NCBI GenBank assembly: GCA_964419335.1
Contig: CAYQOX010000007.1
Location: forward strand, 65,189-122,072
DNA: 56,884 bases
Reading direction: 5' to 3'
DNA from: an uncultured bacterium
GTDB taxonomy: Bacteria > Hinthialibacterota > Hinthialibacteria > Hinthialibacterales > Hinthialibacteraceae
A program made the translations under genes and the position numbers. Positions within the stretch are counted from its first letter, which is position 1; each line of letters starts with the position of its first letter. The notes beneath the pieces are model-generated. The model saw only the letters and a program-made list of their open reading frames with translations, was not told where the DNA came from and did no database searches. Of this stretch, positions 1,480 to 45,247 are shown one piece after another.

Positions 1480-2139
1480 ATGACTCTTGTTTTAACAGCA
1501 CGTTTTCATTCTTCCTTGTTGGAAGAACGATGGAATACGTATCTCAGAGATCTCCCCCATTTTCTGAAAGACGAAATTATGCGTTATCGCCGGTGGGAAG
1601 ATCGCCATTGTGTTCTATTTGGGAAACTTTTATTACGCGATGGTTTGAAGCGTTATCGTATTGATCCCAAGGTTATTTCACGTTTACAAAAGAATGCTTA
1701 CGGTAAGCCGTTTATTCCAGGTACTCCTCATTTTTCCATATCGCATTCCGCGCAACATATCATTTGTGCTTTTCATCCAAAGGCAGAAATTGGGGTAGAT
1801 ATAGAACCTATTCGCCCCATTGACTTGACACCTTTCCAATCGTACATGTCCGATCAGGAGTGGCGCGATATTTATCGATATTCACCGCCTGAAGTGGGAT
1901 TTTTCCGTTATTGGGCAATCAAAGAAAGTGTGATTAAGGCTGATGGACGTGGTTTATCCGCTCCGTTGGAGGCGATGGATATTCAGGAAAACGTCGCATT
2001 TTTGCAGGGGCGAAAATGGTTTATTAAAGAGTTGAAGTTATATCCTGGGATGGCTTCTTGGGTGGCAAGTGGGGAGGCTCTTCAAGATTTAGAAATATGT
2101 GAAATTCAGTATTGCGTTGAAAACAAAATTATTGATTGA
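1480..2139 (+). CDS. 4'-phosphopantetheinyl transferase, Sfp-type
   Basis: ATG at 1480 with an AGGAG-like site upstream. Motifs GKPF (P1), FSISHS, GVDIE (P2) and WAIKESVIKADGRGL (P3; W/KES/K). Length about 219 aa. Convergently overlaps the SPFH gene by 11 nt. Confidence 0.85.
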   Translation: MTLVLTARFHSSLLEERWNTYLRDLPHFLKDEIMRYRRWEDRHCVLFGKLLLRDGLKRYRIDPKVISRLQKNAYGKPFIPGTPHFSISHSAQHIICAFHPKAEIGVDIEPIRPIDLTPFQSYMSDQEWRDIYRYSPPEVGFFRYWAIKESVIKADGRGLSAPLEAMDIQENVAFLQGRKWFIKELKLYPGMASWVASGEALQDLEICEIQYCVENKIID

Positions 2140-3232: not shown

Positions 3233-3243
3233 TTCCAGGCTTG

Positions 3244-4890
3244 TTAAAAATTCTTATTGATTTCGTGATTCATTGGTTCCAAACGGCCATAATCCATCCG
3301 ATAAATACGATCAGCGAGGCCATAATATTTGTCATCATGGGTAATGGCAATAATCGTCTTGCCTTGTTTCACCAAATTTTGCAGATAGACCTCATAAAAG
3401 TATTTCCTAAAGACTGGGTCTTGGTCGGCCGCCCATTCATCATACACATGGATTTCACGATTTTCTAACTCGGCTAATGTCAGAGCAAGTCTTTTTTTCT
3501 GACCCATCGAAAGGTCTAGGCTGGTAATCGTGCCATCTTTTCGAATTGAGGTTTTATCGTGAATTTGCATTTCTCGCAATAATTGTTGAACCCGATCGGG
3601 ATCAATTTGGTCTATACCGTAAGCCCGATCAAAGAGATGGGGTGATTGAAAAACTGCGGCAAAGTTGGCTCGATAGTGGGCGGGGGGGTGTTCAGTTATG
3701 TCTTGCTGGTTATGGAGGATCGTCCCTTGTTGGAGGGGATAAAGGCCGGTTAACACTTTAATTAAGGTGGTTTTTCCGGCGCCATTACCTCCCATGAGAA
3801 AGATGATTTCCCCGCGATTTACTTCTAGACTAATGGGGCCGATCCCAAACGTTGTTTCGGACACGTGATGATCGTATTGGAAATATACGTTATTCAAGCG
3901 CAAGTTAGCAAACTTCGGGGTAGAAATACGGCTATCAGGAGGGATCAGAGGTTCCTCAGGTAATTGTTGTAAATGTTGGCATATTTGGTTTAAACTTTTG
4001 ACTGAGATATTAGCCCGTTCAATGTAAGGGAATGAGCCGACGATTTCTTGCAACGGTCCGGTCGTTACAAAAAGAAGGATGGTCACTACTTGAATAAGGT
4101 TGTTTTGGGAAATTTGGATGATTTGGGGGAATATAAAGATCATGAATGCGAGAAGCAAGTATGAGAAGATCTGAGCAAAGATAATCGAAAAATTGAGTTT
4201 GGTCGAAGCATGAATTTTTAAGTTCTCAGTTTCATTGGCGGTAGAGAGAATATGGTTTTGAAAGAGATCCTGGTTACGAGGTTCATGGATTTTAATTTCT
4301 TGAAAACCATCAATCATGTGATTGATGTAATCAAAAAACTGGTTTTCTTTTTCTCTTGCTTCGGTTAGGTATCTTTCATGCTCTGATCGTTTAATACGAT
4401 AAAGTTGGATCCCCCCAAGCAAAAGGATGAGAGTAATAAGCAGTGCGTGCAAGGAAACAAAACCAATATATACAAAGGCGATGAGCATCAGGGTTAAAGA
4501 AGAAAGCATATTGGAAATGGAATTGGCGGCTTGAGAAATGAGGAGCATCTCTTGGGTGAGGAGGGTATGAATAGGATGCTGCTCTATCCTTTCAAAGGGA
4601 AGCAGGGGGATGCGTCGAATGAGGTTGGAAAACTGGGTTCGTGTGGAAGCGATCAACGTTTCGATCATTTCACTGGAACGATCCATGGTGTACTTTTGTA
4701 ATCGAACATAGGCAAAGATTGCGACACAAAATAAAAAGAAATATCGGAGTTGGGTATCGATTGTGGCATTGATAGAAAGAATAATTAAAAGTATGATAAC
4801 GAAATTTAATAGTCCAGCGAAGGCGAAATAGGCGAGAAACCGGGGTTCAAAAATACCGGTTTTTTCTTTCAAAAATTGCAAAAATTCCAT
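3244..4890 (-). CDS. Cyclic-peptide ABC exporter, SyrD/YojI family (fused permease + ATPase), paralog 1
   Basis: ATG at 4888-4890. N-terminal six-helix permease. C-terminal NBD with Walker A GGNGAGKTT, atypical signature LSMGQKKRLA, Walker B HVYDEWAADQD and an H-loop AITHDD. This motif set is characteristic of the SyrD-type exporters found in NRPS clusters. Confidence 0.85.
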   Translation of the reverse strand: MEFLQFLKEKTGIFEPRFLAYFAFAGLLNFVIILLIILSINATIDTQLRYFFLFCVAIFAYVRLQKYTMDRSSEMIETLIASTRTQFSNLIRRIPLLPFERIEQHPIHTLLTQEMLLISQAANSISNMLSSLTLMLIAFVYIGFVSLHALLITLILLLGGIQLYRIKRSEHERYLTEAREKENQFFDYINHMIDGFQEIKIHEPRNQDLFQNHILSTANETENLKIHASTKLNFSIIFAQIFSYLLLAFMIFIFPQIIQISQNNLIQVVTILLFVTTGPLQEIVGSFPYIERANISVKSLNQICQHLQQLPEEPLIPPDSRISTPKFANLRLNNVYFQYDHHVSETTFGIGPISLEVNRGEIIFLMGGNGAGKTTLIKVLTGLYPLQQGTILHNQQDITEHPPAHYRANFAAVFQSPHLFDRAYGIDQIDPDRVQQLLREMQIHDKTSIRKDGTITSLDLSMGQKKRLALTLAELENREIHVYDEWAADQDPVFRKYFYEVYLQNLVKQGKTIIAITHDDKYYGLADRIYRMDYGRLEPMNHEINKNF

Positions 4891-5126
4891 CAGGGTTTTA
4901 TCTCACCTTGTCATTTTGAATGGTTTTGGGTCATCCGGATAGAATCGATTCAAAAAAGGTCGAGAAGGATTCACTTAAGGATTCGTGTAATCTCTAACCA
5001 CCTATTTCAAGTCTTTGGCTTTTCTAAAGTAGTTTGGACACATCATAATTACTTCCTTGATAAAAATCTATACTTCGTACAATGATTTCTGCGTAACCAA
5101 ATGAGTTTATGCGGGTATCAGTGTCC

Positions 5127-5148
5127 TTGAAATCTCTATGGATTTCAA
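5127..5148. promoter_or_regulatory. Perfect palindrome TTGAAATC-N6-GATTTCAA in the PKS leader region
   Basis: 5127..5134 and 5141..5148 are exact reverse complements. Lies about 230 nt upstream of the gene A start, within the 484-bp AT-rich divergent intergenic region. Confidence 0.4.
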
Positions 5149-5269
5149 GTGAAAATGAAATTTTTAAAATTTATAAAAAAAATGGCAAAATCTTTCTCTT
5201 TTGATTTTGTAAAAAAAGCGTTTAGTGATATGATAAGTGTGCTTTTCTTAAATTTAAGTCATAATTAAG

Positions 5270-5290
5270 TTTGTAAAATAATATTACAAA
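5270..5290. promoter_or_regulatory. Inverted repeat TTTGTAA-N7-TTACAAA about 90 nt upstream of PKS gene A
   Basis: 5270..5276 and 5284..5290 are exact reverse complements in a very AT-rich stretch. Confidence 0.3.
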
Positions 5291-5380
5291 TAGAGAGATG
5301 TACTATTGATTTGAACTATCTCATAACTACTGGTGCATCATCAATGATATTTTTTAAGCGAGTTACTACGTAAATTGGAT

Positions 5381-8188
5381 ATGATGAATTTATTTAATGA
5401 CCCCATAGCCATTGTTGGAATGGGATGTCGGTATCCAGATGGGGCAAATCTACCTCATTTATTGTGGACGATTCTCAAAGAAAAAAAAGACTGTATTACC
5501 GAGATACCAGAAGAGCGATGGGATTACAGAGATTATCATAATAGCGACAATTCTATTTCAAAATGGGGGGGATTTCTTCAAGGTATAAAACCGGATGAAT
5601 TCGATGCGGCGTTTTTTGGTATCGCCTCAGGTGAAGCCACCTCGCTTGATCCGCAACAGCGTTGGTTATTAGAAGTCTCGTGGGAAGCGTTGGAATATGG
5701 GGGGATCGATCCCCGTGAATTACGGGCTCGGAAGGTCGGCATTTATATCGGGATTAGTACGCATGACTACCTAAACGGGACGATCGCTTCTCAAGATCTC
5801 CAACGTATCTCCCATTATAGTGGAACAGGCTCTTCCTTTAGTACCGCTGCGGGAAGGCTGGCTTACTTTTATGGAACTTATGGGCCCGCACTGTCGCTTG
5901 ATACGGCTTGTTCTTCTTCTCTCGTGGCCTTTCATCAAGCCTGCCAATCATTGCGAATGGGGGAATGTGATATGGCTATCGTCGGGGGTGTTAATGCACT
6001 CTTGACGCCTCATTTGCATGTTTATCTGTCCAAATTAGGGGTGATGTCTCGAAAAGGACGATGCCAGTCTTTTGATCAGAGTGCTGATGGGTATGTGCGA
6101 TCAGAAGGATGCGGGGTGATGGTACTGCAACGATTGGCCGATGCGAGGCGTGAAGGTAGAACGATCTTGGCTCATTGCATTGGTTCTGCTGTGAATCAGG
6201 ATGGTCATGGTGCCAGTTTGACCGCTCCTAATGTATCGGCGCAGGAACAATGTATTCGTCAGGCTTTGCGACAAGCGAAGATTGATGCTCGCGAGGTTGG
6301 ATATATTGAAGCGCATGGTACTGGGAACCCTTTGGGGGATGCGACGGAATTACAAGCACTGGGAAGCGTTTTTGCTTCCGGGAGAGAGACGCCTTTATGG
6401 CTGGGGTCGGTCAAATCCAATATTGGACATCTAGAAGCAGGAGCAGGAGTCGCAGGATTAATCAAAACTGTGCTCATATTTCGTTACGGCATGATTCCCC
6501 CAAATCTTCATTTCAAGCAGCCGTGTGATGCATTTACTTCCTTGGATCAAGTATTTCGAATACCAAAAAACACTGTGGCTTGGGAGAGAAATAAGATTCC
6601 TAGGCGTGCGGGGATTAGTTCGTTTGGGTTTAGCGGAACGAATGCGCATGTCATCTTAGAAGAGCCGCATGATGAGGTTGAGAATAGAAAGCCATCGAAA
6701 AATTTCGAGGATCGACCGGTACATATCCTTACTTTCTCGGGAAAAAGTAAAAATGCTTTACACGAATCTGTATCTCAGGGACTGACATTTCTTGAAAAAC
6801 ACAATTGTTCACTCGCGGATGTGGGTTACACATTGAATGCCGGGCGGGCTCATTTTGCCCACCGGTTTGCAGTATGGGGGAATAGTGTAAATGATGTTAT
6901 TTCACAACTGAAAAATCGGTTATGGGAACAAACAGAGGTGGATCTTGCCAAAGAACTGGTTTTTACTTTCACTCCTTTAACCAAGCGCGATAAAGAAGGC
7001 GTGAAAGAATTCCTTCGTACGAGTCCTGTTTTCTATACAGAGTTCAAAAAATGGGATGATGTTACGCAATCAAAGGGGTTGAAATCTCTGTTCTTATATA
7101 TACAAAACGACGGAGATGCAGGCGGTTTGGAAGAAGAGTTCGTTCTTCAAACTTCACTGTTGTGTATATTGTTTTTACTGTGGAATTCGTGGGGGGTTGT
7201 ATCCAAAAAATTGATTGCTCAGCCCTCAACCTTACTTGCAGCACTGTACTGCAGTGAAATTATTACCATGGAAGAAACGGTGGAACTTTCTTGTTTTCTT
7301 TCTCAAGAAAACAAGCCCTTGTCAGATGAAAAACTCGCTTCAATTGGGCAAAGAAGTTCGCAGTTGACATTATTTTTTGATACACAGAAGGAATGTAATT
7401 TTAATCGGGCATGGTTAACAACACTGAAAGATCGTTTTACTCTTGATTTACAGCATTCACCTCATTTTCATAAAGAAGTTCATTTTGATTTACGCCTTGG
7501 CATGTGGAGTAAAGATGAAGTTTTGAGTTGGAATCTGATATCTAAAACGTTATGTGCGTTGTCAATGCAAGGTTGGGATATTAACTGGAAGGCTTTTGAT
7601 TCGCCTTATGAGCGCAACGTACTATGTGAAATGCCTACCTACCCATTTCAACGAAAAAAATATTACATCAATCCTATGGAGCCTTTATTGCAAAAGATTG
7701 TTAAACCGGTCAATCCAAAAAGAAACCTTGAAACGCAGGATATTCAAGAAAGGTTGTGTTCATGCATTAAAGGGAAGCGAGGTGAATATTTGAAAACTTG
7801 TATTCATGATACGGCCCTACATATTTTGGGGGATGTCACCTCGTTGGAATATGAACGTCCATTGGTCGAACAGGGATTTGATTCACTCACGGCGGTAGAA
7901 TTACGCAACCGCTTAGCGAAAGACTTGGAATTATCCTTACCGGTGACCCTGCTGTTTAATTATCCTACCATACAGGCCTTAGCGGATTATTTAATGGAAA
8001 TCATTCCATGGGACGATTGGACAAATGAAGGAAAGACAAAGCCGTCTGAGGAACAAGAGGAGTCGAATATGGAATCGATCCCGGATGAGCTTCATAAGAC
8101 TTTAACCGATGAAGAAATGAAACATCTTGATGGGTTGGATGATGAAGAATTAGAACAATGGATCAAAGACGATCTAGAATCAATTTGA
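5381..8188 (+). CDS. Type I PKS module: KS - degenerate AT (AT0) - ACP
   Basis: The ORF track start at 5375 is TTG; the first ATG is 5381. KS motifs: DTACSSS (Cys about 5909), EAHGTGN, NIGHLE. The post-KS region is homologous to a KS-AT linker plus AT, but GQGSQ is replaced by PLTKR and GHSIG by AQPST, and HAFH is absent. This indicates an inactive AT. ACP has GFDSL (Ser about 7883). Acidic C-terminal tail (DEEMKHLDGLDDEELEQWIKDDLESI) resembles a docking element. Confidence 0.9.
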   Translation: MMNLFNDPIAIVGMGCRYPDGANLPHLLWTILKEKKDCITEIPEERWDYRDYHNSDNSISKWGGFLQGIKPDEFDAAFFGIASGEATSLDPQQRWLLEVSWEALEYGGIDPRELRARKVGIYIGISTHDYLNGTIASQDLQRISHYSGTGSSFSTAAGRLAYFYGTYGPALSLDTACSSSLVAFHQACQSLRMGECDMAIVGGVNALLTPHLHVYLSKLGVMSRKGRCQSFDQSADGYVRSEGCGVMVLQRLADARREGRTILAHCIGSAVNQDGHGASLTAPNVSAQEQCIRQALRQAKIDAREVGYIEAHGTGNPLGDATELQALGSVFASGRETPLWLGSVKSNIGHLEAGAGVAGLIKTVLIFRYGMIPPNLHFKQPCDAFTSLDQVFRIPKNTVAWERNKIPRRAGISSFGFSGTNAHVILEEPHDEVENRKPSKNFEDRPVHILTFSGKSKNALHESVSQGLTFLEKHNCSLADVGYTLNAGRAHFAHRFAVWGNSVNDVISQLKNRLWEQTEVDLAKELVFTFTPLTKRDKEGVKEFLRTSPVFYTEFKKWDDVTQSKGLKSLFLYIQNDGDAGGLEEEFVLQTSLLCILFLLWNSWGVVSKKLIAQPSTLLAALYCSEIITMEETVELSCFLSQENKPLSDEKLASIGQRSSQLTLFFDTQKECNFNRAWLTTLKDRFTLDLQHSPHFHKEVHFDLRLGMWSKDEVLSWNLISKTLCALSMQGWDINWKAFDSPYERNVLCEMPTYPFQRKKYYINPMEPLLQKIVKPVNPKRNLETQDIQERLCSCIKGKRGEYLKTCIHDTALHILGDVTSLEYERPLVEQGFDSLTAVELRNRLAKDLELSLPVTLLFNYPTIQALADYLMEIIPWDDWTNEGKTKPSEEQEESNMESIPDELHKTLTDEEMKHLDGLDDEELEQWIKDDLESI
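6700..7640 (+). other. Degenerate acyltransferase (AT0) region inside PKS gene A
   Basis: Aligns block-by-block with the active AT of gene B (linker ILTFSGKSKNAL vs LLPLSARSENAL; VFTFTPLTKR vs VFLFTGQGSQ; IAQPSTLLAA vs VAGHSIGEYAA). The oxyanion-hole and GHSxG motifs are lost. The post-AT linker PTYPFQRKKYY is retained. Confidence 0.7.
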
Positions 8189-8197: not shown

Positions 8198-11100
8198 ATG
8201 AATCAATCCAATGAAAGCCAAGTGCTAAAAAAAACCTATATTGCTTTAAAGAAAACCCAAAAGCGGGTGGAAGAATTAGAAAACGCCCAGCGTGAACCTT
8301 TAGCGATTATTGGCATGGCTTGCCGATTTCCCGGGGGAGGAAATACACCTGAAGCGTTTTGGGATTTGCTGAAGAATGGTGTCGATGCGAGTAGTGAGAT
8401 TCCTGAAGAACGGTGGAAATCACAAACTTTTTATCATCCTGAACCCGATACTCCTGGAACCACCCATGCTCATCGTGCGAACTTTCTAACATTACCAATC
8501 GATGAATTCGACGCTCCTTTTTTCAATATATCCGCCAAAGAAGCCCGGGCCATGGATCCCCAGCAGCGTTTGCTCATGGAAGTCTCTTGGGAAGCCATGG
8601 AAGATGCAGGATTAAATGTAAGTCGCTTAAATGGTAGTCGGACAGGGGTGTATGTGGGGATTTCCAGCGATGATTATTCGCTAGCGCATCGACATTCGGG
8701 AGATTATGGGCAAGTAGATGCCTATTCATTGACAGGAACGTGTTTTGCGCCCGCGGCGGGACGGCTTTCGTATTCCTTTGGTTTTGAGGGACCGTCTATG
8801 GCGGTGGATACAGCTTGTTCTTCCTCGCTGGTGGCATTGCATTTGGCTTGTCGGGGATTGAGAAATCATGAGATGGATATGGCTTTGGTCGGGGGAGTGA
8901 ATTTAATCTTAACTCCATCTTTCCATATTTGTTCAACCAAGTTAGGCACGATTTCACCTGATGGACGGTGTAAAACTTTTGATGCTTCGGCCGATGGCTA
9001 TGGACGCGGTGAAGGCTGCGGAATGGTCGTGATTAAGCGGTTATCAGATGCGGTTCGCGATGAGGATCCTATCCATGCGGTGATTCGTGGTACGGAGGTC
9101 AATCAGGATGGGAAGAGCAATGGCTTAACTGCCCCTAATGGACGTTCCCAAGAAAAAGTGATTCGTAGTGCGTTGGCGAATGCGGGATTATCTCCAGCGG
9201 ATATTAATTATGTTGAAGCCCATGGTACTGGAACCTCGCTGGGGGATCCTATTGAGGTGGAAGCGATTGCTCGCGTGATGGAAGAATCGCACACCCGAGA
9301 GAATCCCGTGTGGATCAGCTCCGTAAAAATCAACATTGGCCATTTGGAGGCCGCAGCGGGGATTTCTGGCTTATTTAAAGTTATTTTATCTATGCGGCAT
9401 GATACCTTGCCTCCACATTTTCACTTCAAAAATCCCAATCCTTATGTTGACTGGGAGCAATTGCCCGTAGAAGTCCCGACACAGCTAACTTCATGGCAAA
9501 GGAATGACAAACCTCGACGTGCTGGGATCAGCTCTTTTGGTTTTAGCGGGACCAATGCCCATGTCGTTGTGGAAGAGCCCCCATCGGTGAAAGAGGAGCA
9601 GGAAGGTCAGCAGCCGATAGAAATTCAAAGCAGGAAAGATCGGTCGTCTTGTCTCTTGCCTTTGTCGGCTCGTAGTGAAAATGCATTAAAAGCATTAGCA
9701 AAGAACTATGTCCGTTTTATAGAGCACAGTGATGTTTCGATTGCCGATATATGTCATACCGCAGGTGTGGGTCGTACCCATTTCAATTACCGTATTTCCG
9801 TAATTGGTAAAGATGCGGATGAAATCAAAACGAACTTGGAGGCGTATACCCAGGGGAAAAAGGCGGCAGGACTCAAGCAAAATGATGGGGTTTTATCTAA
9901 ACCCAAGGTGGTTTTTCTGTTCACTGGTCAGGGCTCACAATATGTAGGGATGGGTAAGGAACTTTATGATACATCGCCGGTCTTTCGAGATGCTATGGAT
10001 GCCTGCGATGCAGGTTTACGTCCCTATCTAAATGAGTCGCTTCTAGAGTTACTCTATAGCGAAGGCGCAGATGATACGCGGTTGACCCAAACTCAGTTTA
10101 CCCAGCCAGCGATCTTTGCCATAGAATATGCGTTAGCACAGCTTTGGATGTCGTGGGGGGTGATACCCGATAAGGTTGCGGGACATAGCATTGGAGAATA
10201 TGCAGCGGCGTGTATCGCGGGAGTTATGAGCTTAGAGGATACACTTCGCCTTGTTGCCGCAAGGGGAAGATTGATGCAATCACTTCCGGGTAATGGAACC
10301 ATGGCGGCAGTGTTTGCCCGGGAAGAAGACTTGCTCGCTCAGTTGGATTTCGAGGGGAAAGAAGTTTCCATCGCTGCTGTGAATGCGCCGGGTTCGGTTG
10401 TCCTTTCAGGAGAACGTGGACAAGTCCAGGAGATGATTGAGGAGTTAAAGAAGCGAGGAATCTCTGCGAAGCAACTTAATGTTTCCCATGCGTTTCATTC
10501 TCCATTAATGGACCCTATTTTGGATGAATTTAGACAGATTGCCAATGAGATCACTTATCATGATCCTGAAATTTCCATCATTTCGACCGTAAGGGGTGGA
10601 GAGATTCAGGATGGGGATTTCACCAGCGCCGAATATTGGACAGAACAAATTCGGAAGCCGGTACGTTTTTGTGAAGCGGGTGAGAGGTTAAGTTTGGATA
10701 GTTCTTCTCTCCTGCTTGAGATCGGGGCAATGCCGATTTTGGCAGGACTCATGAAGCGGATTGTGACAGAGGACACTTGTACCATTTTATATTCAATGAA
10801 AAAAGGCGAAGAGGAATGGAAAAGTTTGCTTCACGCGTTGGGTGAAGTTTATATTCATGGAATTGAAGTTGGTTGGCGGGCCTATGATCAAGCTTATAAA
10901 CGCAAGCGCGTATCCTTACCTTTTTATGCTTTTCAACGCAAAAACTTCTATATGAATCCGGTTCGAGAACAAGGCCCCGCCGGTGGCGGACACGCTTTCA
11001 CAGAGGATAGCCATCCCTATTTAGGTGAACGTATTGATAGTCCCATTATGGGAGAAGATTCTACCTTATTTCAGGCTTTGTTTAGCGAGCCGTGGCCTGA

Positions 11101-14100
11101 CTTTTTACGTCAGCACAAGATTTTTGGGAAGATTATTTCTCCCGGGGCGGCGCATTTGTGTATGGCTTTATCGGCTTGGCGTAATGAAAAGGGGAACGAG
11201 CCTTGTGTTTTAGAAAATGTTGATTTGACGGCTCCTTTGGTGGTCGATGAGGAAGAAAAGCGTAAGGTTCAATTAATTTTGGAAAATAAGCTGGATTCAA
11301 AAGCGGAGTTTCGTCTGTTGAGTAAAGAGGCGGGACAACGAAAAGGAACGTGGATCCTACATTGTAATGGAAATGTTCACAATCTTTTGGAAGACGAAAC
11401 AAACTCTGAGCCGCTGCCGCTGGAAGAAATCCGAACCCGTTGTGATGAGGATATGACGGCGGAAGAATTGTATCAATATATTGAAAATGTGGGGTATAGC
11501 GTCGGCCCGTTATTCCAGTGCGTGCGCGAGATTCATAAGGGAGATAACGAGGCTTTGTGTATTGTGAGGAACGTGCATGAGGTAGATGAAATGGCGGTAT
11601 ATCCCGGATTGGTCGACTCGTTTTTGCAGACAGTTCTGCCTGCGTTGATGAAAAATGATCGCGGTATGCTGGATGGCGAGCATGTCCTGATTCCCCTGCA
11701 TTTTAAAAAGATCCAATTTCAAAAAAGTTTAGATGGAGATTTATATTGTCATACCCAGGTTGCATTGATGGAGGATGCTATCAAAGCCCAAATTCGGATT
11801 GCAGATCCGAGTGGAAACGTGGTTTTGGAAATTGAAGATTTCCTTCTTAAATATACTGATCGCAATACCCTCTACCGCGATTTGCGGGAAGACTTTCATA
11901 AACTCATTTATCTTACCCAGTGGGACGAGATACGCCCTCGAGAGAAAGAACATGTTTCCAGTACGGGACTCTCTTACTCTCTCGTTTTGGATGACGGTCA
12001 TGGTTTTGGACAGACTCTTGTGAATACGATTCGAACCCAAGGTGGGAATTGTATTCATGTTCTTCTTGGGGAGACTTTTGAGCAGAAAGCCAAGGATACT
12101 TATGTAGTCAATGCGAACCAGGAAGATGATCTTTCACAAATTTTCCATGAAGCCATTAAACATAAAGGGGATACACCCATTCACCTTTTGTGTTGCCTGG
12201 GTATCAAAGATGGTCATATTCATGAAATCGATGCCAATGGACTAGAATTCGCAGAGCAAATAATTATTCAGCCTTTGCTATCGGTTTTCCATCAATTGCA
12301 TTCTCAAAATGTAACTGATCATTTTAAACTTTGGTGTTTCACCGAAAAAAGTCAGCGCACTCATCTGGAGGATGGTACGATTCAACTCGCAACTTCTCCC
12401 CTATGGGGATTAGGGCGAACCATGGAAATGGAATTCCCTGAAATGTGGGGGGGGATGATCGATGTCGATGCCAACCTACCGGCAACAGCGTTTGCAACAG
12501 TGCTGGCTCATATCGAAGAACCAAATCACGAAAATCAGATTGCCGTGCGCCAGAATGGGCGGATATATGGTGCGCGCTTAATCCCGATGAAAAAGAGACG
12601 CGAGGAGTCTTCTCGGGAAGAATTGCCGCTGCCCTCCTGTTCGAAAGATGAAGGTATTTATTTGGATACAGGAAATAAAGGGACGCTCGATGAATTGAAC
12701 TTCAAAAAACGCTCACGACGCGAACCGCAAGCGAATGAAGTCGAAGTACACATTTATGCCTCAGGTCTGAATTTTCGTGATGTGCTTAATGTCTTGGGGC
12801 AGTACCCCGGTGACGCGGGATTTATGGGCTATGAGGCGGCAGGAATTGTGACCCGTACCGGATCTCTCGTGAGTGAATTTCGAGAGGGAGACGGGGTGAT
12901 TGTCATGGATGCACCGGGATGCATTTGTGATTACATGACCTGCGATTTGAATTGCGTGATGAAGATCCCCGCGGGGATGAATTTCTATGAAGCCGTTACA
13001 TTACCCGCTACCTTTTTGACGGCTTATTATGCCTTAGAAAAATTGGGACATGTGCGAGAAGGCGATAAAGTGTTGATCCATGCCGGAGCCGGCGGAGTGG
13101 GGATGGCCGCGGTCCAATTATGCCTGGATGCAGGGGCTGAAGTCTTTGCTACGGCAGGTTCGGATAAAAAACGCGCCTTATTGAAAGATATGGGAGTACA
13201 TCATGTGATGAATTCCCGCACACTTGAATTCGCGGATGAGATCCACACGATTACTCAAGGCCAGGGTGTCGATGTGGTGTTGAATTCCTTATCGGGCGAT
13301 TTTATTGAAAAGAGTTTTGAAGTCTTGGCCAAGCATGGACGCTTTTTAGAGATGGGAAAGATCGAGATTTGGAACGAGTCTCAGGTTCGTGCGAAAGATC
13401 CGAGTTATTCGTATTATCCCTTCGATCTCTCTACGGTCTCGCGTGAGAATCCCGGCTATGTCAAAGAATTGTTCCACGAGCTCTTGCCAAGATTTGAAAG
13501 CCAGTCTTTGACTGCCTTGCCCTATACTGTTTTTCCTATGCGACGTGCGAAAGAGGCGTTTCGTTACATGGCTCAAGCCAAGCATATAGGGAAAATTGTG
13601 CTTTCACGTTTGGAGGATATTCGTCGGGATGAAAGAGAAACCTTGGGAGTTGTTCGTTCGGATGCCACTTATTTAATTACCGGTGGTTTGGGGGCGTTAG
13701 GTTTGCAAGCAGCCCGGTGGTTGGCTGAAGAAGGAGCTCAACATATCGTGTTGACTAGTCGCAGTGATCCTAAGCCAGAGGTGGAAGCAATATTGCAATC
13801 GTTGCAGCAACAAGGCATTGAGATTGAGGTTATGCGGGGGGATGTGGCACACGAAGAGGATGTGCAACGTATAATCCAACGCATTCGGACTGAGATGCCC
13901 CCGCTGAAAGGAATTCTTCATGCCGCGGGAGTCTTAGATGATGGGATGTTAGGAGAACAAACTTGGGAACGTTTTAAAAAAGTAATGGCACCGAAGGTAC
14001 GTGGCGCTTGGAATCTGCATCGGGCTACCCGTAATGTGTTGTTGGACTTTTTCGTGATGTATTCTTCGGTGGCCTCGTTGTTAGGGAACTTAGGACAAAG

Positions 14101-14830
14101 TAACTATGCGGCTGCTAATGCCTTTATGGATTCATTAGCACACTATCGTCGTCAGCAAGGTTTACCTGCATTGAGCGTTAATTGGGGGCCCTGGGCTGAA
14201 GCCGGAATGGCAGCGGGTGTATCGAAAGAACGTTTCTCCAGCCAAGGCATACAAAGTCTTAATCCTGAACGCGGAATGCATATTTTGAATACTTTGCTTA
14301 CTGAAGAGATTACCCAACCGTGCGTGATTGATGTGGATTGGGCAAAGTATGCCGAGAGCCGGGCTCTGGATGGGCGGCACGGATTTTTCTCAATGTTATT
14401 AGGAGAATCCAAAGTCAAGAAAAAGACAGATAAATTCGAATCAAAAGAACAGAATCTAATTCTTGATGAGCTCAAGCAATGTTCCGATGGACAGCGGAAG
14501 AATACACTTGTTGCTTTTCTTAAGCAAACGGCGCTGGACGTGCTTGGTTATAGTGAGACGGAGCAAATATCAACCGATCAACCGTTGGTTGATCAAGGCT
14601 TTGATTCCCTTATGAGCGTGGAAATGCGCAATCGTTTAGGTAAAAGTTTGAATCAATCACTACCGGCCTCACTTTTGTTTGACTATCCCACTTTGGAAAA
14701 GATCGCCGAATATTTGCTGGAAGAAGTATTAAAAGTAGAGGAAGAAACCGGTACGAGTGAGGTACAAACGAAAGCAGGTCGCGCTTCCGATGATTTGCTG
14801 AGCGAGATCGATGAATTGGTAAAATCCTAA
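8198..14830 (+). CDS. Type I PKS module: KS-AT(malonyl)-DH-ER-KR-ACP (fully reducing)
   Basis: ATG at 8198 preceded by GAGGTGG. N-terminal coiled-coil docking. KS: DTACSSS, EAHGTGT, NIGHLE. AT: GQGSQ, GHSIGE (about 10181), HAFH (malonyl-type). DH: HPYLGERIDSP (HxxxGxxxxP) and DSFLQ. ER: LIHAGAGGVGMAAVQ (about 13072..13110). KR: TGGLGALG, LDD motif, S..Y..N triad (SNYAAANA about 14101). ACP: GFDSL (14597..14611). Confidence 0.9.
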   Translation: MNQSNESQVLKKTYIALKKTQKRVEELENAQREPLAIIGMACRFPGGGNTPEAFWDLLKNGVDASSEIPEERWKSQTFYHPEPDTPGTTHAHRANFLTLPIDEFDAPFFNISAKEARAMDPQQRLLMEVSWEAMEDAGLNVSRLNGSRTGVYVGISSDDYSLAHRHSGDYGQVDAYSLTGTCFAPAAGRLSYSFGFEGPSMAVDTACSSSLVALHLACRGLRNHEMDMALVGGVNLILTPSFHICSTKLGTISPDGRCKTFDASADGYGRGEGCGMVVIKRLSDAVRDEDPIHAVIRGTEVNQDGKSNGLTAPNGRSQEKVIRSALANAGLSPADINYVEAHGTGTSLGDPIEVEAIARVMEESHTRENPVWISSVKINIGHLEAAAGISGLFKVILSMRHDTLPPHFHFKNPNPYVDWEQLPVEVPTQLTSWQRNDKPRRAGISSFGFSGTNAHVVVEEPPSVKEEQEGQQPIEIQSRKDRSSCLLPLSARSENALKALAKNYVRFIEHSDVSIADICHTAGVGRTHFNYRISVIGKDADEIKTNLEAYTQGKKAAGLKQNDGVLSKPKVVFLFTGQGSQYVGMGKELYDTSPVFRDAMDACDAGLRPYLNESLLELLYSEGADDTRLTQTQFTQPAIFAIEYALAQLWMSWGVIPDKVAGHSIGEYAAACIAGVMSLEDTLRLVAARGRLMQSLPGNGTMAAVFAREEDLLAQLDFEGKEVSIAAVNAPGSVVLSGERGQVQEMIEELKKRGISAKQLNVSHAFHSPLMDPILDEFRQIANEITYHDPEISIISTVRGGEIQDGDFTSAEYWTEQIRKPVRFCEAGERLSLDSSSLLLEIGAMPILAGLMKRIVTEDTCTILYSMKKGEEEWKSLLHALGEVYIHGIEVGWRAYDQAYKRKRVSLPFYAFQRKNFYMNPVREQGPAGGGHAFTEDSHPYLGERIDSPIMGEDSTLFQALFSEPWPDFLRQHKIFGKIISPGAAHLCMALSAWRNEKGNEPCVLENVDLTAPLVVDEEEKRKVQLILENKLDSKAEFRLLSKEAGQRKGTWILHCNGNVHNLLEDETNSEPLPLEEIRTRCDEDMTAEELYQYIENVGYSVGPLFQCVREIHKGDNEALCIVRNVHEVDEMAVYPGLVDSFLQTVLPALMKNDRGMLDGEHVLIPLHFKKIQFQKSLDGDLYCHTQVALMEDAIKAQIRIADPSGNVVLEIEDFLLKYTDRNTLYRDLREDFHKLIYLTQWDEIRPREKEHVSSTGLSYSLVLDDGHGFGQTLVNTIRTQGGNCIHVLLGETFEQKAKDTYVVNANQEDDLSQIFHEAIKHKGDTPIHLLCCLGIKDGHIHEIDANGLEFAEQIIIQPLLSVFHQLHSQNVTDHFKLWCFTEKSQRTHLEDGTIQLATSPLWGLGRTMEMEFPEMWGGMIDVDANLPATAFATVLAHIEEPNHENQIAVRQNGRIYGARLIPMKKRREESSREELPLPSCSKDEGIYLDTGNKGTLDELNFKKRSRREPQANEVEVHIYASGLNFRDVLNVLGQYPGDAGFMGYEAAGIVTRTGSLVSEFREGDGVIVMDAPGCICDYMTCDLNCVMKIPAGMNFYEAVTLPATFLTAYYALEKLGHVREGDKVLIHAGAGGVGMAAVQLCLDAGAEVFATAGSDKKRALLKDMGVHHVMNSRTLEFADEIHTITQGQGVDVVLNSLSGDFIEKSFEVLAKHGRFLEMGKIEIWNESQVRAKDPSYSYYPFDLSTVSRENPGYVKELFHELLPRFESQSLTALPYTVFPMRRAKEAFRYMAQAKHIGKIVLSRLEDIRRDERETLGVVRSDATYLITGGLGALGLQAARWLAEEGAQHIVLTSRSDPKPEVEAILQSLQQQGIEIEVMRGDVAHEEDVQRIIQRIRTEMPPLKGILHAAGVLDDGMLGEQTWERFKKVMAPKVRGAWNLHRATRNVLLDFFVMYSSVASLLGNLGQSNYAAANAFMDSLAHYRRQQGLPALSVNWGPWAEAGMAAGVSKERFSSQGIQSLNPERGMHILNTLLTEEITQPCVIDVDWAKYAESRALDGRHGFFSMLLGESKVKKKTDKFESKEQNLILDELKQCSDGQRKNTLVAFLKQTALDVLGYSETEQISTDQPLVDQGFDSLMSVEMRNRLGKSLNQSLPASLLFDYPTLEKIAEYLLEEVLKVEEETGTSEVQTKAGRASDDLLSEIDELVKS

Positions 14831-14881: not shown

Positions 14882-17800
14882 ATGGATTCGATCACAGAAC
14901 AAAAATATAAAGAAACTCTCCGAAAAGCCTCTGAACGAATCAAAGCCCTGACGGTGGAAAATGAGTCGTTAAAGAATCCTGAACCCATTGCTGTGATTGG
15001 TATGGGCTGCCGTTTTCCTGGCGAGGCGAATACACCGGCCTCTTTTTGGGAACTCTTGCGTAATGGGGTGGATGCGGTCGATGAAATTCCCGCGGATCGA
15101 TGGGATGTGGAGGCCTATTATGATCCTGATCGAGAAGCCTTGGGAAAAATGTATACCAAACAGGGGGCGTTTTTATCCGGTGTCGATTTGTTCGATTCTT
15201 CATTTTTCGGCATAACACCTAAAGAAGCAGAATCTATGGATCCCCAGCAACGAATTCTGATGGAAGTGTCGTGGGAAGCCTTTGAGAATGCCAGTTTGAA
15301 TCCCGCCCATTTCCGTGGAAGTCGAAGCGGGGTTTTTGTTGGGCTTTCGAATTATGACTATATTCAGAGCCATATTCATTCAGGAGATGTAGAACGCATA
15401 ACTCCCTATTCAGGAAGCGGAGTCATGTTCAGCACAACGGCGGGGCGGCTTTCATATTTTTACGATTTTCAAGGTCCCTGCTTGACCGTCGACACCGCCT
15501 GTTCATCTTCGCTGGTAACGCTGCATCTGGCCGTTAAAAGTTTGCAAAAGGGAGAGTGTGATTTGGCTTTAACAGGTGGAGTCAACCTCCTCTTGTCGCT
15601 CGATAGTTATATCGCTATGTGCAAGGTTAACGCACTTTCTCCAGATGGGCGATGCCGGACGTTTGATAATGAAGCCCAAGGCTACGGACGAGGTGAAGGC
15701 TGTGGTGTTATTCTGCTTAAACGATTGTCAGAATCTCTTCAAGATGGGGATCGAATCCTCTCTGTTATTCGCGGGACGGCGGTGAATCATGATGGACGCA
15801 GCAACGGACTCACCGCTCCGAATGGACCCTCACAGCAACGGGTGATTCAACAAGCTTTAACCGATGCGCGCTTGAAGCCCGAGGAGGTGGATTATATTGA
15901 AGCGCATGGCACGGGCACCATTTTGGGGGATCCGATAGAAGTTCATGCCTTGGATACGGTTTATGGAAAAGGACGGGATCAAGAAAATCCTTTATTCATT
16001 GGGTCGGTAAAAACCAATATTGGCCATACAGAGGCTTCTGCGGGAATCGCAGGTATTATTAAAGTGATTCTCGCTTTGCAAAATAAAATGATACCTCCCA
16101 GTTTGCATTTTCATTCTCCCAGCCAGCACATAACCTGGGATCAAATTCCCATTCGGGTTGCTTCGCAATTACAGGAGTGGGAGGTGAAAGACAAAAAGCG
16201 GATTGCGGGTGTCAGTTCGTTTGGGTTGAGCGGAACCAATTCGCATATTCTTTTAGAAGAAGCGCCTGTGAATCAAGTTGAAGTTGATCCACAGGATCCA
16301 CGCGATTCTTACACCTTAAAATTATCTGTCCATACAGAAGCAGCGTTGAAACAATCGGCACTCCAATTTTCTGATTTTCTTAAGAATCATCCAGAAGTTA
16401 ATTTGCGGGATTTGTGTTATACCGCGAATACAGGGCGATGTGATTTCGCCCGGCGAATTGCGATCGTTGCCCACACCCGCGAAGAATTCTCCAAGGCTCT
16501 TTCGGCCTATTCTCAAGAACAAAAATCTCCCCACGTTTTTCTTTCGAGATATCAACTTAAAAATAAAGAGGTTGTGTTTCTTTTTACGGGGCAAGGGGCT
16601 ACTTACAAGGGGATGGGAAAAGTCTTGTATGAACATCATCCCGTTTTCCGAGAATCTTTAGAACATTGTGAAGAGATCTTATCACGCTATTGGAATGAGT
16701 CTCTCCTTGATTTGCTTTACCAGGGAGAAGAAACGCGCTTGCTCGAAACCGAAATTACGCAGCCCGTTTTGGTTGCCTTTGAGTATGCCTTAGCCCAGTT
16801 GTGGAAACATTGGGGAATCCAGCCCCGTGTAGTTGTCGGCCATAGCATTGGTGAATATGCCGCAGCAATCACTGCAGGCGTGTTTTCGTTAGAAACGGGA
16901 TTGAAACTGGCGGTGGAGCGTGGACGTCTAATGCAAGCGCTCCCTTCACGAGGCGCGATGGCGGCGGTGTTCGCTTCAGAGGAACATATGACTCCTTTGC
17001 TAGAGGCCTTTACGGGCAAAATTCATATAGCCGCCTGCAATGCACCGGAACGTATGACCTTGTCCGGGGATGCGGATGCTCTGGAAGCATTCCTAGAGGA
17101 ATTGCGAGAAAAGAACATCGAGTTTCGCCGCTTACGTGTCTCGCATGCGTTTCATTCGCATCATATGCAGCCCATGCTTGAGGCGTTTGAACAGAGTGTA
17201 AAACAAGAAAAATGTAACCCTCCCAATCTCCCTTTTTATTCTTCGGTGACGGGGAAACGAGTTGATTCAAAGGAACTTTTGTCCAGCGCTTATTGGACAC
17301 GAGAAATCGCTCAGCCGGTGTTGTTTAAACAAGCAGTGCAAAGCCTTTATGACGATGGGATGAAAATTTTCTTAGAAGTGGGACCGACTGAAACCTTAGC
17401 CCTTTTTGCTCGGCAAACGTGCAGTGAAGGTTTGTTTCTTTCTTCTTTAAAAAAAGGAGTGAGTGATTGGGCGAGACTTCAAACGAGCGCAGCCCAACTC
17501 TACGTTCATGGAATTAATGTAGACTGGCACACTTTTGAGTCTCCTTTTTCTGGTAAACGGATCGATCTTCCAACTTATCCCTTTCAACGAAACCGTTACT
17601 GGTTGGATTTGTGTCCTATACGAAATCAAAAAGGAACGATTGCAAGCCAATCTACGGAACATACACAAGATACCACTCGAAACCTGACTTTACAGAATGA
17701 AACCTCAACTACCAATCAGCAGGTAAAAAAGATGGATATACGAGAAACGATATTAAATGAACTTACCCTTCAATTGGCAGAAGTGGGTGGTTTTCAACAA

Positions 17801-20800
17801 GAAGATATTTCGCCCGAGATTCGATTAATTGAGATGGGATTGGATTCATTAATGCTGGTCAAGATTGGACAAGAGGTTGAACGGCGCTATCAAGTCGAAC
17901 TCACCATGAGCCAGTTCTTTCATGAAATCCAAACCTTGCATGACTTGGTTGATTATTTAATGGAGCATGGAGATCTTCGTGCCGTCAAAGGGCAAGAATC
18001 CGCAGTTGAAGAAACCAAGCCCAATAAAGAAACACGCTCTTCTTTGCCCTCGATTGCTCATGAATCCATCGAGCCTACATCAAACTCCACGGTGCAATTG
18101 ATGCGAGAACAATTGCGTTTGATGGAGCAGGTGAGCAAACAAAGCCAAGAGTCGGTAGAAAAATTAATTCAAGAACAATTGTCGGTTTTACAGAATAGGG
18201 CGAGGGAAGATGGCAAAAACCTTCCTGCTACACCTTCTGCGTCTACGACTCATACTCAACCTGCTCAACCCAAGCCGGCTGAAAAGAAAGAACCGCGCGT
18301 TGGAGGAGCAGAACGCTTTCGTTCGCTTCATTTACAGCGTGGGGGAATGATGAACGAAAAGCAAAAAAAATTCATCGATGAACTCATTCAACGACACATT
18401 CAACGCACCTCAACCTCCAAATCCATGACCCAGGACTCACGGCCGGTCTTGGCGGATTGGAAGCATACCCTTTCCTTTTGGGGGCAGTTGAAGGAAGCGA
18501 AGTATCCCATCATTTCATCGCGTTCCGAAGGTGCACGATTTTGGGATGTGGATGGCAATGAATATATTGATGTGGCCATGGGCATGGGGGTCCATTTTCT
18601 TGGGCATACACCACCTGTGGTTCGCCAGTCCTTGGAGCGTCAATTAAGCGAAGGTATGGAAATTGGCACCCAGTGTGATTTGACCGGTGAGGTGGCGCGT
18701 TTGATTTGTGAGCTGACCGGCAATGAGCGGGTGACCTTTTGTAATACCGGATCGGAAGCAGTGATGGTATGTTTGCGGTTGGCGCGCGCGGTCAGTCAGC
18801 GGGATACGGTAGTTCTTTTCCAAGAGTCATACCATGGAATATTTGACGGCGTGTTGGCAATGGAAGCCGATGGTAAAAAAATCCCTATCGGTCTAGGAAC
18901 CCCGCAAGGGATGATTGAAAATGTTGTCGTTTTGAAATATGGCGATCCTGAATCCTTGGAAAAAATTGAAGAACTCGGAGATGAACTGGCGGCGGTATTG
19001 GTCGAACCGGTACAAAGCCGGAATCCCGATTTGCAGCCACAGAACTTTTTGAAAAAACTACGGCGTATTACACAACAAAACAATGTAGCGTTAATTTTCG
19101 ATGAAATGATCACGGGTTTTCGCATACATCCTGGCGGGGCTCAGCATTGGTTCGGCGTAAATGCGGATCTCTGCGCTTATGGGAAAATCGTGGGCGGGGG
19201 GCTGCCGATTGGGGTGGTCGCAGGCAAATCAAAGTATATGGATTACATCGACGGCGGTGTGTGGAACTATGGGGATGAATCCGGCCCCAGCTCAGCCATG
19301 ATCTTTTTTGGTGGGACCTTTGGACGTAATCCAATGACGATGGCTTCGGCTCATGCTGCCTTGCTTGAATTAAAACGGCAAGGGGCGGAGTTGCAGCAAA
19401 CCGTCAATCGCCGGACCAGGTCTTTTTGTGATCGTTTAAATTATTGGCTTGAAAAGGAACGGGTACCCATGCGGGTAAAATCATTCGCTTCGCAATGGCG
19501 TTTGGTTCCTTTGGGTGACAACGATCGACAGCCCTTAGAGATGGAATTGCTCTATTTGCAATTGATGGTGAAAGGCGTGTATACCTGGGAAAGACGTATC
19601 TGCTTTTTCTCGGCGGCACATGGGGAGGAAGAGATTGATTATATTTTAAAAAGTATAAAAGAGAGCATTCATGAACTGCGTGATGCGGGATTGGCTTTTT
19701 CGATGGAGGGCGATATCCCAAAACGTTTCGTGGCTCCTACCTCGATTCAGCGGCGATTGTATGCGTTGTGCCAACGTCCCGGGGGTGAAAAGCCTTACCA
19801 TCAGCCTTATGCCTATTGGGTGAATGGGGTGCTCGATATTGATCGTTTGGAAGAATGCATGCAGGAAATTATCCTACGGCATGAGGCGCTGCGCTGCAGC
19901 TTCCATGAATTGGAAGGCGACTTAGTTCTACGGATTGAGGACGAACCCCGCTTTTTAATTGAGCGGTATGAAGCGCGTGACGAAGAGGTTGAGGAGATTC
20001 TTACTCGACTCATTCGCCCTTTTGATTTACATACGGCACCATTATTGCGCATGGCTGTAATTCAAATTTCTCCCGAGCGCTATTTACTCTTTAATGATGC
20101 GCACCATATCGTGATTGATGGATTATCCTTTAATACCATCGTGCGTGATTTGATGGATCTGTACGAAGGACGAACCCCACAACCGGTAAAGCATACGTTT
20201 CTTGAATGTGCAGCATTGTTAGAGAAGCGATGCGATGAGAAACGGTTGGCCTTGTTGGATGCATTTTGGGAAAAAGAATTGCATGGACCGCTGCCGGTGT
20301 TGGAATTACCCACGGATTACCCGCGACCGAAAGAGCCGGATTATGAAGGCGAGCATTTGATCTCCACTCTCGATGAGACCAGCCTGCGAAGGATCAAAGA
20401 TTATACCAAGAAGCAAGGGATTTCATTATACATCTTCCTGGCCGCAGCTTATACGACACTCTTACATCGATTAACAGGGCAGGAAGATATCCTTGTCGGA
20501 ACCCCGGTTTCGGGGCGGGATATTCCAGAGGCACAGGATACGGTCGGCATGTTTGTGAATACCAGCGTGCTTCGCAATTATCCTAAAGCCGATACACCTT
20601 TTGAACAATTTCTCCATGAAGTAAAAGAAACATGCGCGTGTGTTTATGATCATCAGGATTATTCCTTTGAGCGTATGGCTAATCGCTATAACAACGGCAG
20701 GCCGCAAAATCGCAATGCTATTTTTGATACCACATTAGCGTATGAGAATGCAAATGATCGAATCTTCACGATTCGAGATTTAACCTTTACCCAGTATCCG

Positions 20801-40194: not shown

Positions 40195-41277
40195 TTATTG
40201 TTGCATTGTAGGTAAGGTAGAGCGCGTTTGGTCCATGACGTTATTGTTGATCTGATCGAAGAGTCCCGTACTCTGGCTTTCCGAAGTTTGAAAGATCGTG
40301 CTGGGAGAAACCATGGTCTTGCTTGCATCATTGACTTGAACGGGAGAAGAGGCTTTTGATATGTCCGAGGTATTTCCTGTATTCAAAATGAGAGGCAGAC
40401 CTTCTTCAGGACTTCCAATCACCACAACTTTTGGATTCGTTGATCTCGCGAGTACATGAGTGGCTTCGATGCCTCTCCATTTCAAGAGTTCATCGGATAT
40501 CCCTTCTGAGACAATGTCTTGAAAATCGCGGATACCGGTGGCGATAATAACTTTACGTTTTGCTTCTTCTTCTGCCTGCATAAGCAAATACTGATATTTC
40601 TCCGCGTTATGAAATTCCATCAGTTTGTTTTCAATCGATTCCTTAACCAAAGGTGGAAGTTCGATATTGGTTATCAACAAATCATCCAGTTCGACGTAAT
40701 AATCTTCCAATTGGTGTAAGGCTTCTTCTAAAGCCGCATCTAAGAAGCCATACTCGAGTTGATATAATTCTTCAGGTTCATATTTTCCTACAATAAAGCG
40801 TAAGGCCGCCTCTATTTCAGGAACAATGACATTTTGCAAATAATTTGGGCCTAAGTATTCGTGAAGATAATTAAGATCAGTTCCATCCCGGCGCGGGTGA
40901 TGACGGATGGAGATCGTTATATCCACCCGTAAACCATCGCGAGAGAGAACATGGAATGTATGGCGCGTGTGTTGCTGACGAACGTTATAAATATAAATAA
41001 TATCCCATGGAGGAATGATGTGTAATCCTTCATGAAGCGGGGTGGCTTCCAGCACTGTTCCAGTAAAGCGGCGGTACAATACTCCTCGCTCTCCCGATTG
41101 AATGGTAATAAAAATTTTAGGCCAAAGATAGATGGTTAACGCGAGCAGGATTAGTAATAGGATTTCAATCATGAAACGTCTTTTCACAATCCAGCTTCGA
41201 ATCTTCTCTTTCAGAGTTTTTTTGGCCGCCTCTGGACTATGGGGATTTGTCGTCATGTTTGTGGTTGAGTCATTCAT
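40195..41277 (-). CDS. SPFH/band-7 (prohibitin/HflC-like) membrane protein, paralog 2
   Basis: ATG at 41275-41277 overlapping the ABC2 stop by 4 nt. Same core as paralog 1 (ITIQSGERGVLYRRFTG, AEKYQYLLMQAEEEAKRKVIIATGIRDFQDIV). Confidence 0.8.
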   Translation of the reverse strand: MNDSTTNMTTNPHSPEAAKKTLKEKIRSWIVKRRFMIEILLLILLALTIYLWPKIFITIQSGERGVLYRRFTGTVLEATPLHEGLHIIPPWDIIYIYNVRQQHTRHTFHVLSRDGLRVDITISIRHHPRRDGTDLNYLHEYLGPNYLQNVIVPEIEAALRFIVGKYEPEELYQLEYGFLDAALEEALHQLEDYYVELDDLLITNIELPPLVKESIENKLMEFHNAEKYQYLLMQAEEEAKRKVIIATGIRDFQDIVSEGISDELLKWRGIEATHVLARSTNPKVVVIGSPEEGLPLILNTGNTSDISKASSPVQVNDASKTMVSPSTIFQTSESQSTGLFDQINNNVMDQTRSTLPTMQQ

Positions 41278-45195: not shown

Positions 45196-45247
45196 AAAGA
45201 GATTATACAACGATCTAAACGCCGTGAGAGTTTCAAAGAATGGGCTC

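Follow-up and report, generated by a model that had tools for sequence, protein, structure and literature searches.

How does a polyketide assembly line begin when its first protein has neither a recognisable loader nor an acyltransferase able to supply its own extender unit? The question is raised by a stretch of 56,884 nucleotides (hereafter the window, meaning the whole 56.9 kb that was analysed) from an uncultured bacterium of the Hinthialibacterota (assembly GCA_964419335.1, contig CAYQOX010000007.1, positions 65,189 to 122,072 of the forward strand). The window holds one cluster for a hybrid of polyketide synthase (PKS) and nonribosomal peptide synthetase (NRPS), with four assembly-line genes, here called A to D, that all lie on the plus strand, as do the domain coordinates given for them. 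Gene A (5384..8188, 934 aa; identified from the open reading frame list, Pfam and a database match) encodes the first PKS protein, in the order ketosynthase (KS), acyltransferase (AT) relic and acyl carrier protein (ACP). Product prediction from gene clusters takes it for granted that modules each load their own extender and that lines start with a recognisable loader; this first module offers neither, and yet it is conserved between two distant genomes. With slightly better than even confidence, gene A is read here as a conserved, working first chain-extension module of the hybrid line, whose AT has decayed to a structural spacer and which is primed and malonylated in trans.

The open reading frame (ORF) of gene A spans 5375..8188; an identical database protein (P0001, 100%) begins at the ATG at 5384, and a stop codon just 5' of 5375 precludes any upstream extension. 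The KS (5384..6517; Pfam residues 9-380 in ORF numbering) begins at residue 6-9, and its motifs are intact: DTACSSS with Cys176 (5900..5920), EAHGTGN with His311 (6308..6328) and KSNIGH with His349 (6413..6430). It is followed by a KS-AT linker subdomain (6518..6943, residues 391-514; Pfam KAsynt_C_assoc, CurL-like_PKS_C and RhiE-like_linker), the AT relic, a post-AT linker (7520..7666, …GWDINWKAFDSPY…PTYPFQRKKYY) with sequence matches in the PDB to the post-AT linkers of CurL, DEBS and PksA, and an ACP (7784..8008) recognised by both Pfam (PP-binding, residues 816-873) and a carrier hidden Markov model (HMM), with Ser834 in a GFDSL motif (7874..7900). The gap between the post-AT linker and the ACP is ~55 residues, which leaves no room for a ketoreductase (KR). 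The initial annotation, made from the letters alone, had described a KS-dead AT-ACP protein without a KR, whose retained Cys/His/His triad set it apart from the decarboxylating KSQ type of loader, and Pfam, motif reading and alignment bear out each of these points. An AlphaFold2 (AF2) model of gene A (predicted local distance difference test score, pLDDT, 81) superposed best on cis-AT KS-AT didomains in Foldseek, the top match being CurL (4MZ0), with DEBS also matched.

What remains of the AT between these linkers is ~192 aa long (6944..7519), as delimited by alignment with the ATs of genes B and C (AT_B and AT_C), and only the first ~115 residues are recognisably AT. At the GQGSQ site gene A reads VFTFTPLTKRD against VFLFTGQGSQY in AT_B and AT_C (6956..7000), (I)AQPSTL stands opposite the (A)GHSIGE of active ATs at the GHSxG site (7205..7246), and the SHAFHS of active ATs is LTLFFDT; the RGRLMQ arginine and the whole small subdomain are deleted in the alignment with the two active cluster ATs, and the relic is ~110 residues shorter than active ATs. 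A motif search found no GxSxG, GQG or GHS anywhere in the gene A protein, and Pfam returned no AT match in it, Acyl_transf_1 included, even at E<=10. An HMM built from AT_B and AT_C matched the relic at HMM positions 2-116 only (16 bits) and matched none of the other frames of 6700..7640, an interval in which realignment gave no intact GHSxG or GQG; in sequence matches to the PDB the relic was recognised only weakly in its N-terminal part, together with the post-AT linker. The missing GQGSQ and GHSxG motifs had been pointed out in the initial annotation, and to their loss the truncation has now to be added. The AF2 model folds residues 521-650 of the relic confidently and residues 650-700 poorly. 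The relic also has the lowest GC content and the lowest GC at third codon positions (GC3) within gene A (0.38/0.34 vs 0.48/0.41 for the KS), which is consistent with relaxed amino-acid constraint. Judged from its sequence, this AT is a truncated remnant in an otherwise canonical KS-AT scaffold, damaged beyond point mutation, and cannot work.

AT relics built in a similar way are present in other uncultivated lineages, as seen in a multi-module PKS with dead AT remnants from a metagenome-assembled genome (MAG) of the Parachlamydiaceae (L003; CAWDEQ010000003.1, 68-20383). The first module of that PKS has an AT remnant of ~190 aa, with GQG changed to GQT and GHSxG to GDGIG, and for its other modules Pfam reports an AT fragment of ~50 residues only.

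The two ends of the gene A protein bear on its place in the line. Genes B and C each have a basic coiled-coil segment of ~33 residues at the N-terminus ahead of the KS, a coil that gene A lacks, and acidic C-terminal tails are found on both gene A (8009..8185, …EELEQWIKDDLESI) and gene B. With no N-terminal coil and an acidic tail, gene A can only be first in line, its ACP (ACP_A) being set to deliver to gene B; the acidic tail is predicted to pair with the basic N-terminal coil of gene B.

Whether such a protein is a module in use can be judged from an orthologue. With the relic as the only query, a library search recovered a single true orthologue, P0200, which aligned over the whole relic and is the C-terminal 624 aa of the gene A orthologue in the MAG GCA_014728855.1; the gene B orthologue (74% identical) is next to it, likewise after gene A. 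The front half (P0350, 69% identity) was found on another contig of the same assembly in a search with the KS N-terminus. The orthologue begins with the KS directly (MMDLIPETIAVIGMGC), with no N-terminal extension and no docking coil, its KS keeps the Cys and the second His (His349), and the C-terminal docking motif is kept as DELQKWIEDDLESF. Identity by region is 68% for the KS, 49% for the KS-AT linker, 29% for the AT relic, 56% for the post-AT linker, 69% for the ACP and 39% for the C-terminal tail, the overall range being given as 44-69%. The AT of the orthologue is dead as well, with HPVTGED and IATPATL at the motif sites, and the two relics align at 192 of 192 positions without a gap. 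Since both relics are dead while KS and ACP are conserved, the death of the AT predates the split of the two lineages and the module has been kept since; the relic, fixed in length, drifting in sequence and lowest in GC, behaves as a spacer that holds the KS-linker architecture. On this comparison of two sequences gene A is a conserved and presumably functional first module and no fresh pseudogene. A search of 5.8 billion proteins with gene A returned itself and generic PKSs only, and two-sequence profile scans of genome and metagenome contigs gave no further orthologues; one candidate (L058) matched the ACP tail only and belongs to a different, unrelated PKS.

The surroundings of the orthologue were also inspected. 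No loader lies upstream of its gene A, the genes there encoding a HAMP-domain sensor, two unknown proteins and a lipoprotein instead. Their counterparts in the window, at 47-68% identity, occupy 44008..49536, past the far end of the cluster. The four syntenic genes thus adjoin gene A in the orthologous locus (L062, WJKX01000663.1) and the opposite cluster end in the window, from which it follows that a rearrangement or an inversion has changed the position of the cluster among its neighbours.

If gene A works, its starter and its extender must come from somewhere, and the window was searched for both. Pfam was applied to every ORF of at least 150 aa except those on the strand opposite gene C, and HMMs of the cluster's own carriers, adenylation (A) domains, ATs and KSs were run against 462 six-frame stop-to-stop ORFs of at least 45 aa. 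Beyond the assembly-line domains the window yielded no fatty-acyl-AMP ligase (FAAL) or other A-type ligase, no discrete AT, no discrete carrier and no extra KS, with the proviso that GNAT-type loaders shorter than 150 aa were not specifically scanned for; the statement in the initial annotation that the window holds no loading domain therefore stands with the same proviso. The only AMP-binding domains in the window are the four A domains of the NRPS, the only AT-like ORFs in its six frames are AT_B, AT_C and the relic, and the carrier HMM found seven carriers among the window ORFs, all integrated in assembly-line proteins. A dedicated malonyl-CoA transacylase gene of the ItuD/FenF type was likewise not found in the window. 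The AT-rich, divergent intergenic region ahead of gene A (4891..5374, 485 bp) has no coding potential and hides no loader or carrier ORF, and Rfam and tRNA scans found nothing. The further claim that nothing upstream is biosynthetic was mistaken: an Sfp-type phosphopantetheinyl transferase (PPTase; 1480..2139, plus strand; Pfam ACPS, with an AusB/HetI-like NCBIfam match below cut-off) and a cyclic-peptide export ABC transporter (3244..4890, minus strand, divergent from gene A; TIGR01194 above cut-off) lie there. The PPTase would be needed for activating ACP_A and the other six carriers.

The rest of the assembly line was assigned mainly with Pfam. Gene B (8198..14830) has the order KS-AT-DH-ER-KR-ACP, in which DH stands for dehydratase and ER for enoylreductase, with its AT at 9911..10867. 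Gene C (14882..30649) reads KS-AT-ACP-aminotransferase-C-A-PCP-C-A-PCP-C-A-PCP-E, where C is condensation, PCP peptidyl carrier protein and E epimerization; its AT lies at 16574..17515 and its class III aminotransferase at 18500..19480, in line after the KS-ACP part (Aminotran_3 at residues 1207-1533, C domain at 1617-2045). AT_B and AT_C are full Acyl_transf_1 domains that carry GHSIGE, Arg and HAFH; since both are intact and of malonyl type, both are possible trans donors for ACP_A. Gene C is predicted to form a beta-amino acyl unit and then to add three amino acids. Gene D (30624..35069) has C-A-PCP followed by an E-like domain, and no thioesterase (TE).

The A-domain specificity codes, read at pocket positions that we take to be those of GrsA, give Thr, DVRHIALLAK (without an assignment), Phe, followed by an E domain, and Tyr; none of the A domains of the cluster has an Asn code. 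The second A domain of gene C (~24300-26000) has a basic pocket with Arg and His, and its carrier reads GGNSL. The E-like domain of gene D (33801-35066) shares 30% identity with the gene C E domain and has degenerate motifs (HHLITDA, and THHGRD vs EGHGRE); with THHGRD in place of EGHGRE it lacks the catalytic Glu. A stand-alone protein of beta-lactamase/penicillin-binding protein (PBP) fold (35145..36728, plus strand; Pfam Beta-lactamase, weak NCBIfam matches to D-aminopeptidase and class C) is a candidate off-loading cyclase, its position after a last module without a TE being as in off-loading of the SurE/PenA type. Such off-loading normally requires a D-residue at the C-terminus.

The mechanism proposed for gene A is as follows. 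Cys176 of the KS would be acylated directly by an acyl thioester produced outside the window, most likely on an acyl carrier protein loaded by a fatty-acyl-AMP-type ligase and alternatively from fatty-acid synthase or the acyl-CoA pool. ACP_A would be malonylated in trans by a malonyl-specific AT, be it AT_B, AT_C or the housekeeping enzyme FabD, and condensation by the KS would then leave an unreduced beta-ketoacyl-ACP_A to be handed to gene B, the keto group reaching gene B unreduced because module A has no KR. Gene B would add two carbons with full reduction, and gene C two more, converting the new beta-keto group to an amine and giving a 3-amino-7-oxo acyl unit, which would be extended with Thr, the unassigned residue, D-Phe and Tyr before release by the stand-alone PBP-type enzyme. 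The 3-amino-7-oxo chain is what colinearity would give only if ACP_A is malonylated and module A elongates; a KS that merely loads would leave no ketone. As a 1,5-aminoketone, such a chain is prone to cyclise to an imine (delta-1-piperideine), a reaction that would compete for the amine with ring closure of the product.

Several points weigh against this proposal. No trans-AT, FAAL or discrete carrier was found within the window, and a dedicated loader gene at a distance would fit poorly with a cluster that brings its own PPTase along with two exporters. The malonylation of ACP_A is itself something that we infer, and the position of His311 in the orthologue falls in an assembly gap. The relatives of the gene A KS (KS_A) give mixed signals. 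Among the six nearest non-orthologous relatives whose contexts were inspected (51-54% identity), three are first KSs directly behind a loader carrier, one of them after a FAAL-ACP protein, two are internal KSs and one is ambiguous. The argument that KS_A belongs to a clade of starter KSs was dropped in view of these contexts, and the KS relatives leave us with a weak lean towards a starter supplied from outside the window.

The rival explanations differ in what they ask of the KS and of ACP_A. That gene A is a relic, decaying or skipped, and that the line truly begins at gene B is scarcely credible: in its favour are the degenerate AT and the fact that GC and conservation are lowest there within the gene, but the ORF is unbroken in both genomes (44-69% identity), the conservation of KS (68%) and ACP (69%) is similar to that of gene B (74%), and the docking tail is conserved while the N-terminal docking coil of gene B needs a partner. 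A module that serves for loading only, in which ACP_A is never malonylated and the KS shuttles an acyl group from acyl-CoA or acyl-ACP via its Cys to ACP_A and on to gene B, would yield a plain saturated beta-amino fatty acid that lacks the 7-ketone. It would suit the dead AT, the failure to find a trans-AT gene in the window and the conservation of ACP and docking tail, and we nevertheless think it improbable, as gene A has kept both histidines, which only decarboxylative condensation requires, and the orthologue has kept His349. Known non-elongating KSs are usually without the HGTGT histidine.

The main rival, possible though we hold it unlikely, is self-priming with acetate. Here ACP_A would be malonylated in trans, the KS would decarboxylate the malonyl group to acetyl, the acetyl would pass back to Cys176 and a second malonyl-ACP_A would be condensed, so that the line could dispense with an outside loader and its acyl unit would be short (3-amino-7-oxo-octanoyl). 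That modules lacking a loader can be primed by decarboxylation is established in PKS biochemistry. A loader is absent both from the window scans and from the surroundings of the orthologue, the cluster is otherwise self-contained (PPTase, exporters and release enzyme), and the three PKS modules, one of them fully reducing, would build six carbons de novo. On the other side, dedicated decarboxylating loaders have Gln in place of the Cys, which is kept here in both genomes, and several of the nearest KS relatives come after loader carriers.

The starter might also be made on ACP_A with the help of a homologue of AsnB (asparagine synthetase) encoded at 36786..38654 (minus strand; MCG start, Asn_synthase and GATase domains), just beyond the release-enzyme gene and in an operon with the second exporter (41274..42902, 46% identical to that at 3244..4890). 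AsnB-type enzymes amidate malonyl- or succinyl-ACP starters in PKSs without loading modules (bioRxiv 10.64898/2026.04.24.720606). In a GbnC-like manner the homologue could amidate malonyl-ACP_A and the KS could take up the malonamyl group, giving a C9 3-amino-7-oxo diacid monoamide that resembles the beta-amino acid of azumamide. The enzyme has an intact MCG N-terminus and lies within the cluster boundaries, its best match among solved structures is the polyketide-acting TsnB9 and not E. coli AsnB, and the lack of an Asn code in the A domains of the cluster would agree with such a use. We consider it very improbable all the same: a discrete ACP and a dedicated AT are common to all precedents and neither turned up in the window, the annotated proteins closest to the homologue (44-53% identity) sit in NRPS-only clusters, the homologue passes the generic asparagine synthase model, and the Arg and His in the pocket of the second A domain suit a residue, acidic or an amide, for which AsnB could provide. 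The homologue more likely acts on an amino acid or peptide, the residue of the second A domain being one possibility. A literature search for an azumamide cluster gave nothing relevant, and neither did searches for the accessions of sample and assembly.

The three closest annotated AsnB relatives are on linear plasmids of Streptomyces and Kitasatospora; an amino acid racemase gene is near two of them, and in one cluster it is directly adjacent and annotated to the aspartate/glutamate racemase family. The AsnB homologue looks like a cluster-associated subfamily common to several phyla. The idea of a conserved pair of AsnB and solute-binding protein was rejected, the neighbouring solute-binding proteins not being homologous.

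A broader alternative, doubtful in our judgement, takes the cluster as self-sufficient. AT_B or AT_C would serve its own module and also ACP_A, a short starter (acetyl by decarboxylation or malonamyl via AsnB) would be made on ACP_A, and the product would be a small cyclic pentapeptide containing a beta-amino acid with a delta-ketone, from a producer whose neighbouring genes hint at life with a eukaryotic host. The ketone could in that event be a zinc-binding or imine-forming warhead, reminiscent of deacetylase inhibitors of the azumamide and apicidin type.

As for the wider neighbourhood, old paralogous gene sets flank the cluster on both sides (811-4890 and 40195-43766), the paralogues being the cyclic-peptide ABC exporter (46%), an SPFH/Band-7 protein (54%) and a DUF697 protein; the right-hand set also holds a solute-binding protein and the AsnB homologue. 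The best named relatives of a neighbouring gene are in Omnitrophota and Hinthialibacterota MAGs (37-44% identity). Further along, 49543-52803 (minus strand) encodes a 1086-aa protein resembling major facilitator superfamily (MFS) and nucleotide transporters, fused to HEAT repeats and a cyclic-nucleotide-binding domain, and 54798-55268 (minus strand) a small SET-domain protein. SET-domain and HEAT/nucleotide-transporter-like features are often seen in bacteria living with eukaryotic hosts, which may be taken as a hint.

To return to the reading of gene A as a trans-supplied extension module, its AT, shrunk to a spacer of fixed length, is a likely transitional form between cis-AT and trans-AT architecture. 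Should module A be served by a neighbouring cis-AT or by FabD, this would be a natural case of cis/trans mixing, useful for engineering and for annotation rules, one such rule being that a dead AT between intact linkers should not score as a lost module. Depending on the starter, the product would be a lipopeptide or a small keto-peptide.

Among known systems, the initiation of iturin and mycosubtilin (ItuA/MycA with ItuD/FenF) is the closest in working. It involves a trans-malonylated ACP and an in-line aminotransferase and leads to a cyclic peptide with a beta-amino acyl unit (PMC11751314); the partner ACP of the KS is malonylated in trans there, as is proposed here, and in both lines an in-line aminotransferase makes the beta-amine and NRPS modules come next. 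The arrangement differs, since an acyl-ligase and a first ACP are fused ahead of the KS in iturin, whereas the KS of gene A starts at residue 6-9, and the iturin operon encodes a dedicated malonyl transacylase, none of which was found in this window. Furthermore, the AT-dead module is here a separate protein, two modules before the aminotransferase module, which has a working AT. Modules of trans-AT PKSs, for example module 4 of bacillaene (PMC11907408), likewise consist of KS, linker and ACP without a working AT and receive their extender from another protein; unlike in those PKSs, modules B and C are of the cis-AT type, no stand-alone AT gene was found in the window, and gene A keeps an AT remnant of ~190 residues in a model that matches cis-AT KS-AT didomains best.

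First modules primed by FAAL-ACP, which follow the logic of cyanobacterial-type lipopeptides, offer another likeness. In a Victivallales MAG (L070) the PKS starts with a Cys-type KS that has no docking coil and is 54% identical to KS_A, but a FAAL-ACP gene lies immediately upstream there and none lies in the window or beside the orthologue. Loaders of KSQ-AT-ACP design (GfsA, pikromycin) likewise open the line with KS-AT-ACP, in this order, and have structures that match the gene A model; they differ from gene A in having Gln for the active Cys and a working AT, as against Cys and a dead AT, and gene A is 26-27% identical to them vs 30-33% to elongating KS-AT didomains. Unlike non-elongating (KS0) modules, gene A retains the HGTGT histidine (EAHGTGN, His311). 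With amidated-starter systems (gladiolin GbnA/B/C, the glutarimides and sanglifehrin) it shares an AsnB-family amidotransferase in the cluster, although the nearest relatives of this AsnB are NRPS-associated, and no discrete ACP or dedicated AT of the kind those systems have was found in the window. Of the features of a cis-AT elongation module, the KS triad, the KS-AT and post-AT linkers and an ACP with DSL are present and the AT motifs are absent.

Since at least one defining feature of each of these families fails, gene A is a variant: a single AT-dead first module in a cis-AT hybrid line. Orphans make up about 95% of assembly-line PKS clusters (PMC10394414), and an odd orphan module is therefore not rare in itself. 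An AT-dead first module is unusual but not unprecedented, and the conserved orthologue makes the gene A module credible.

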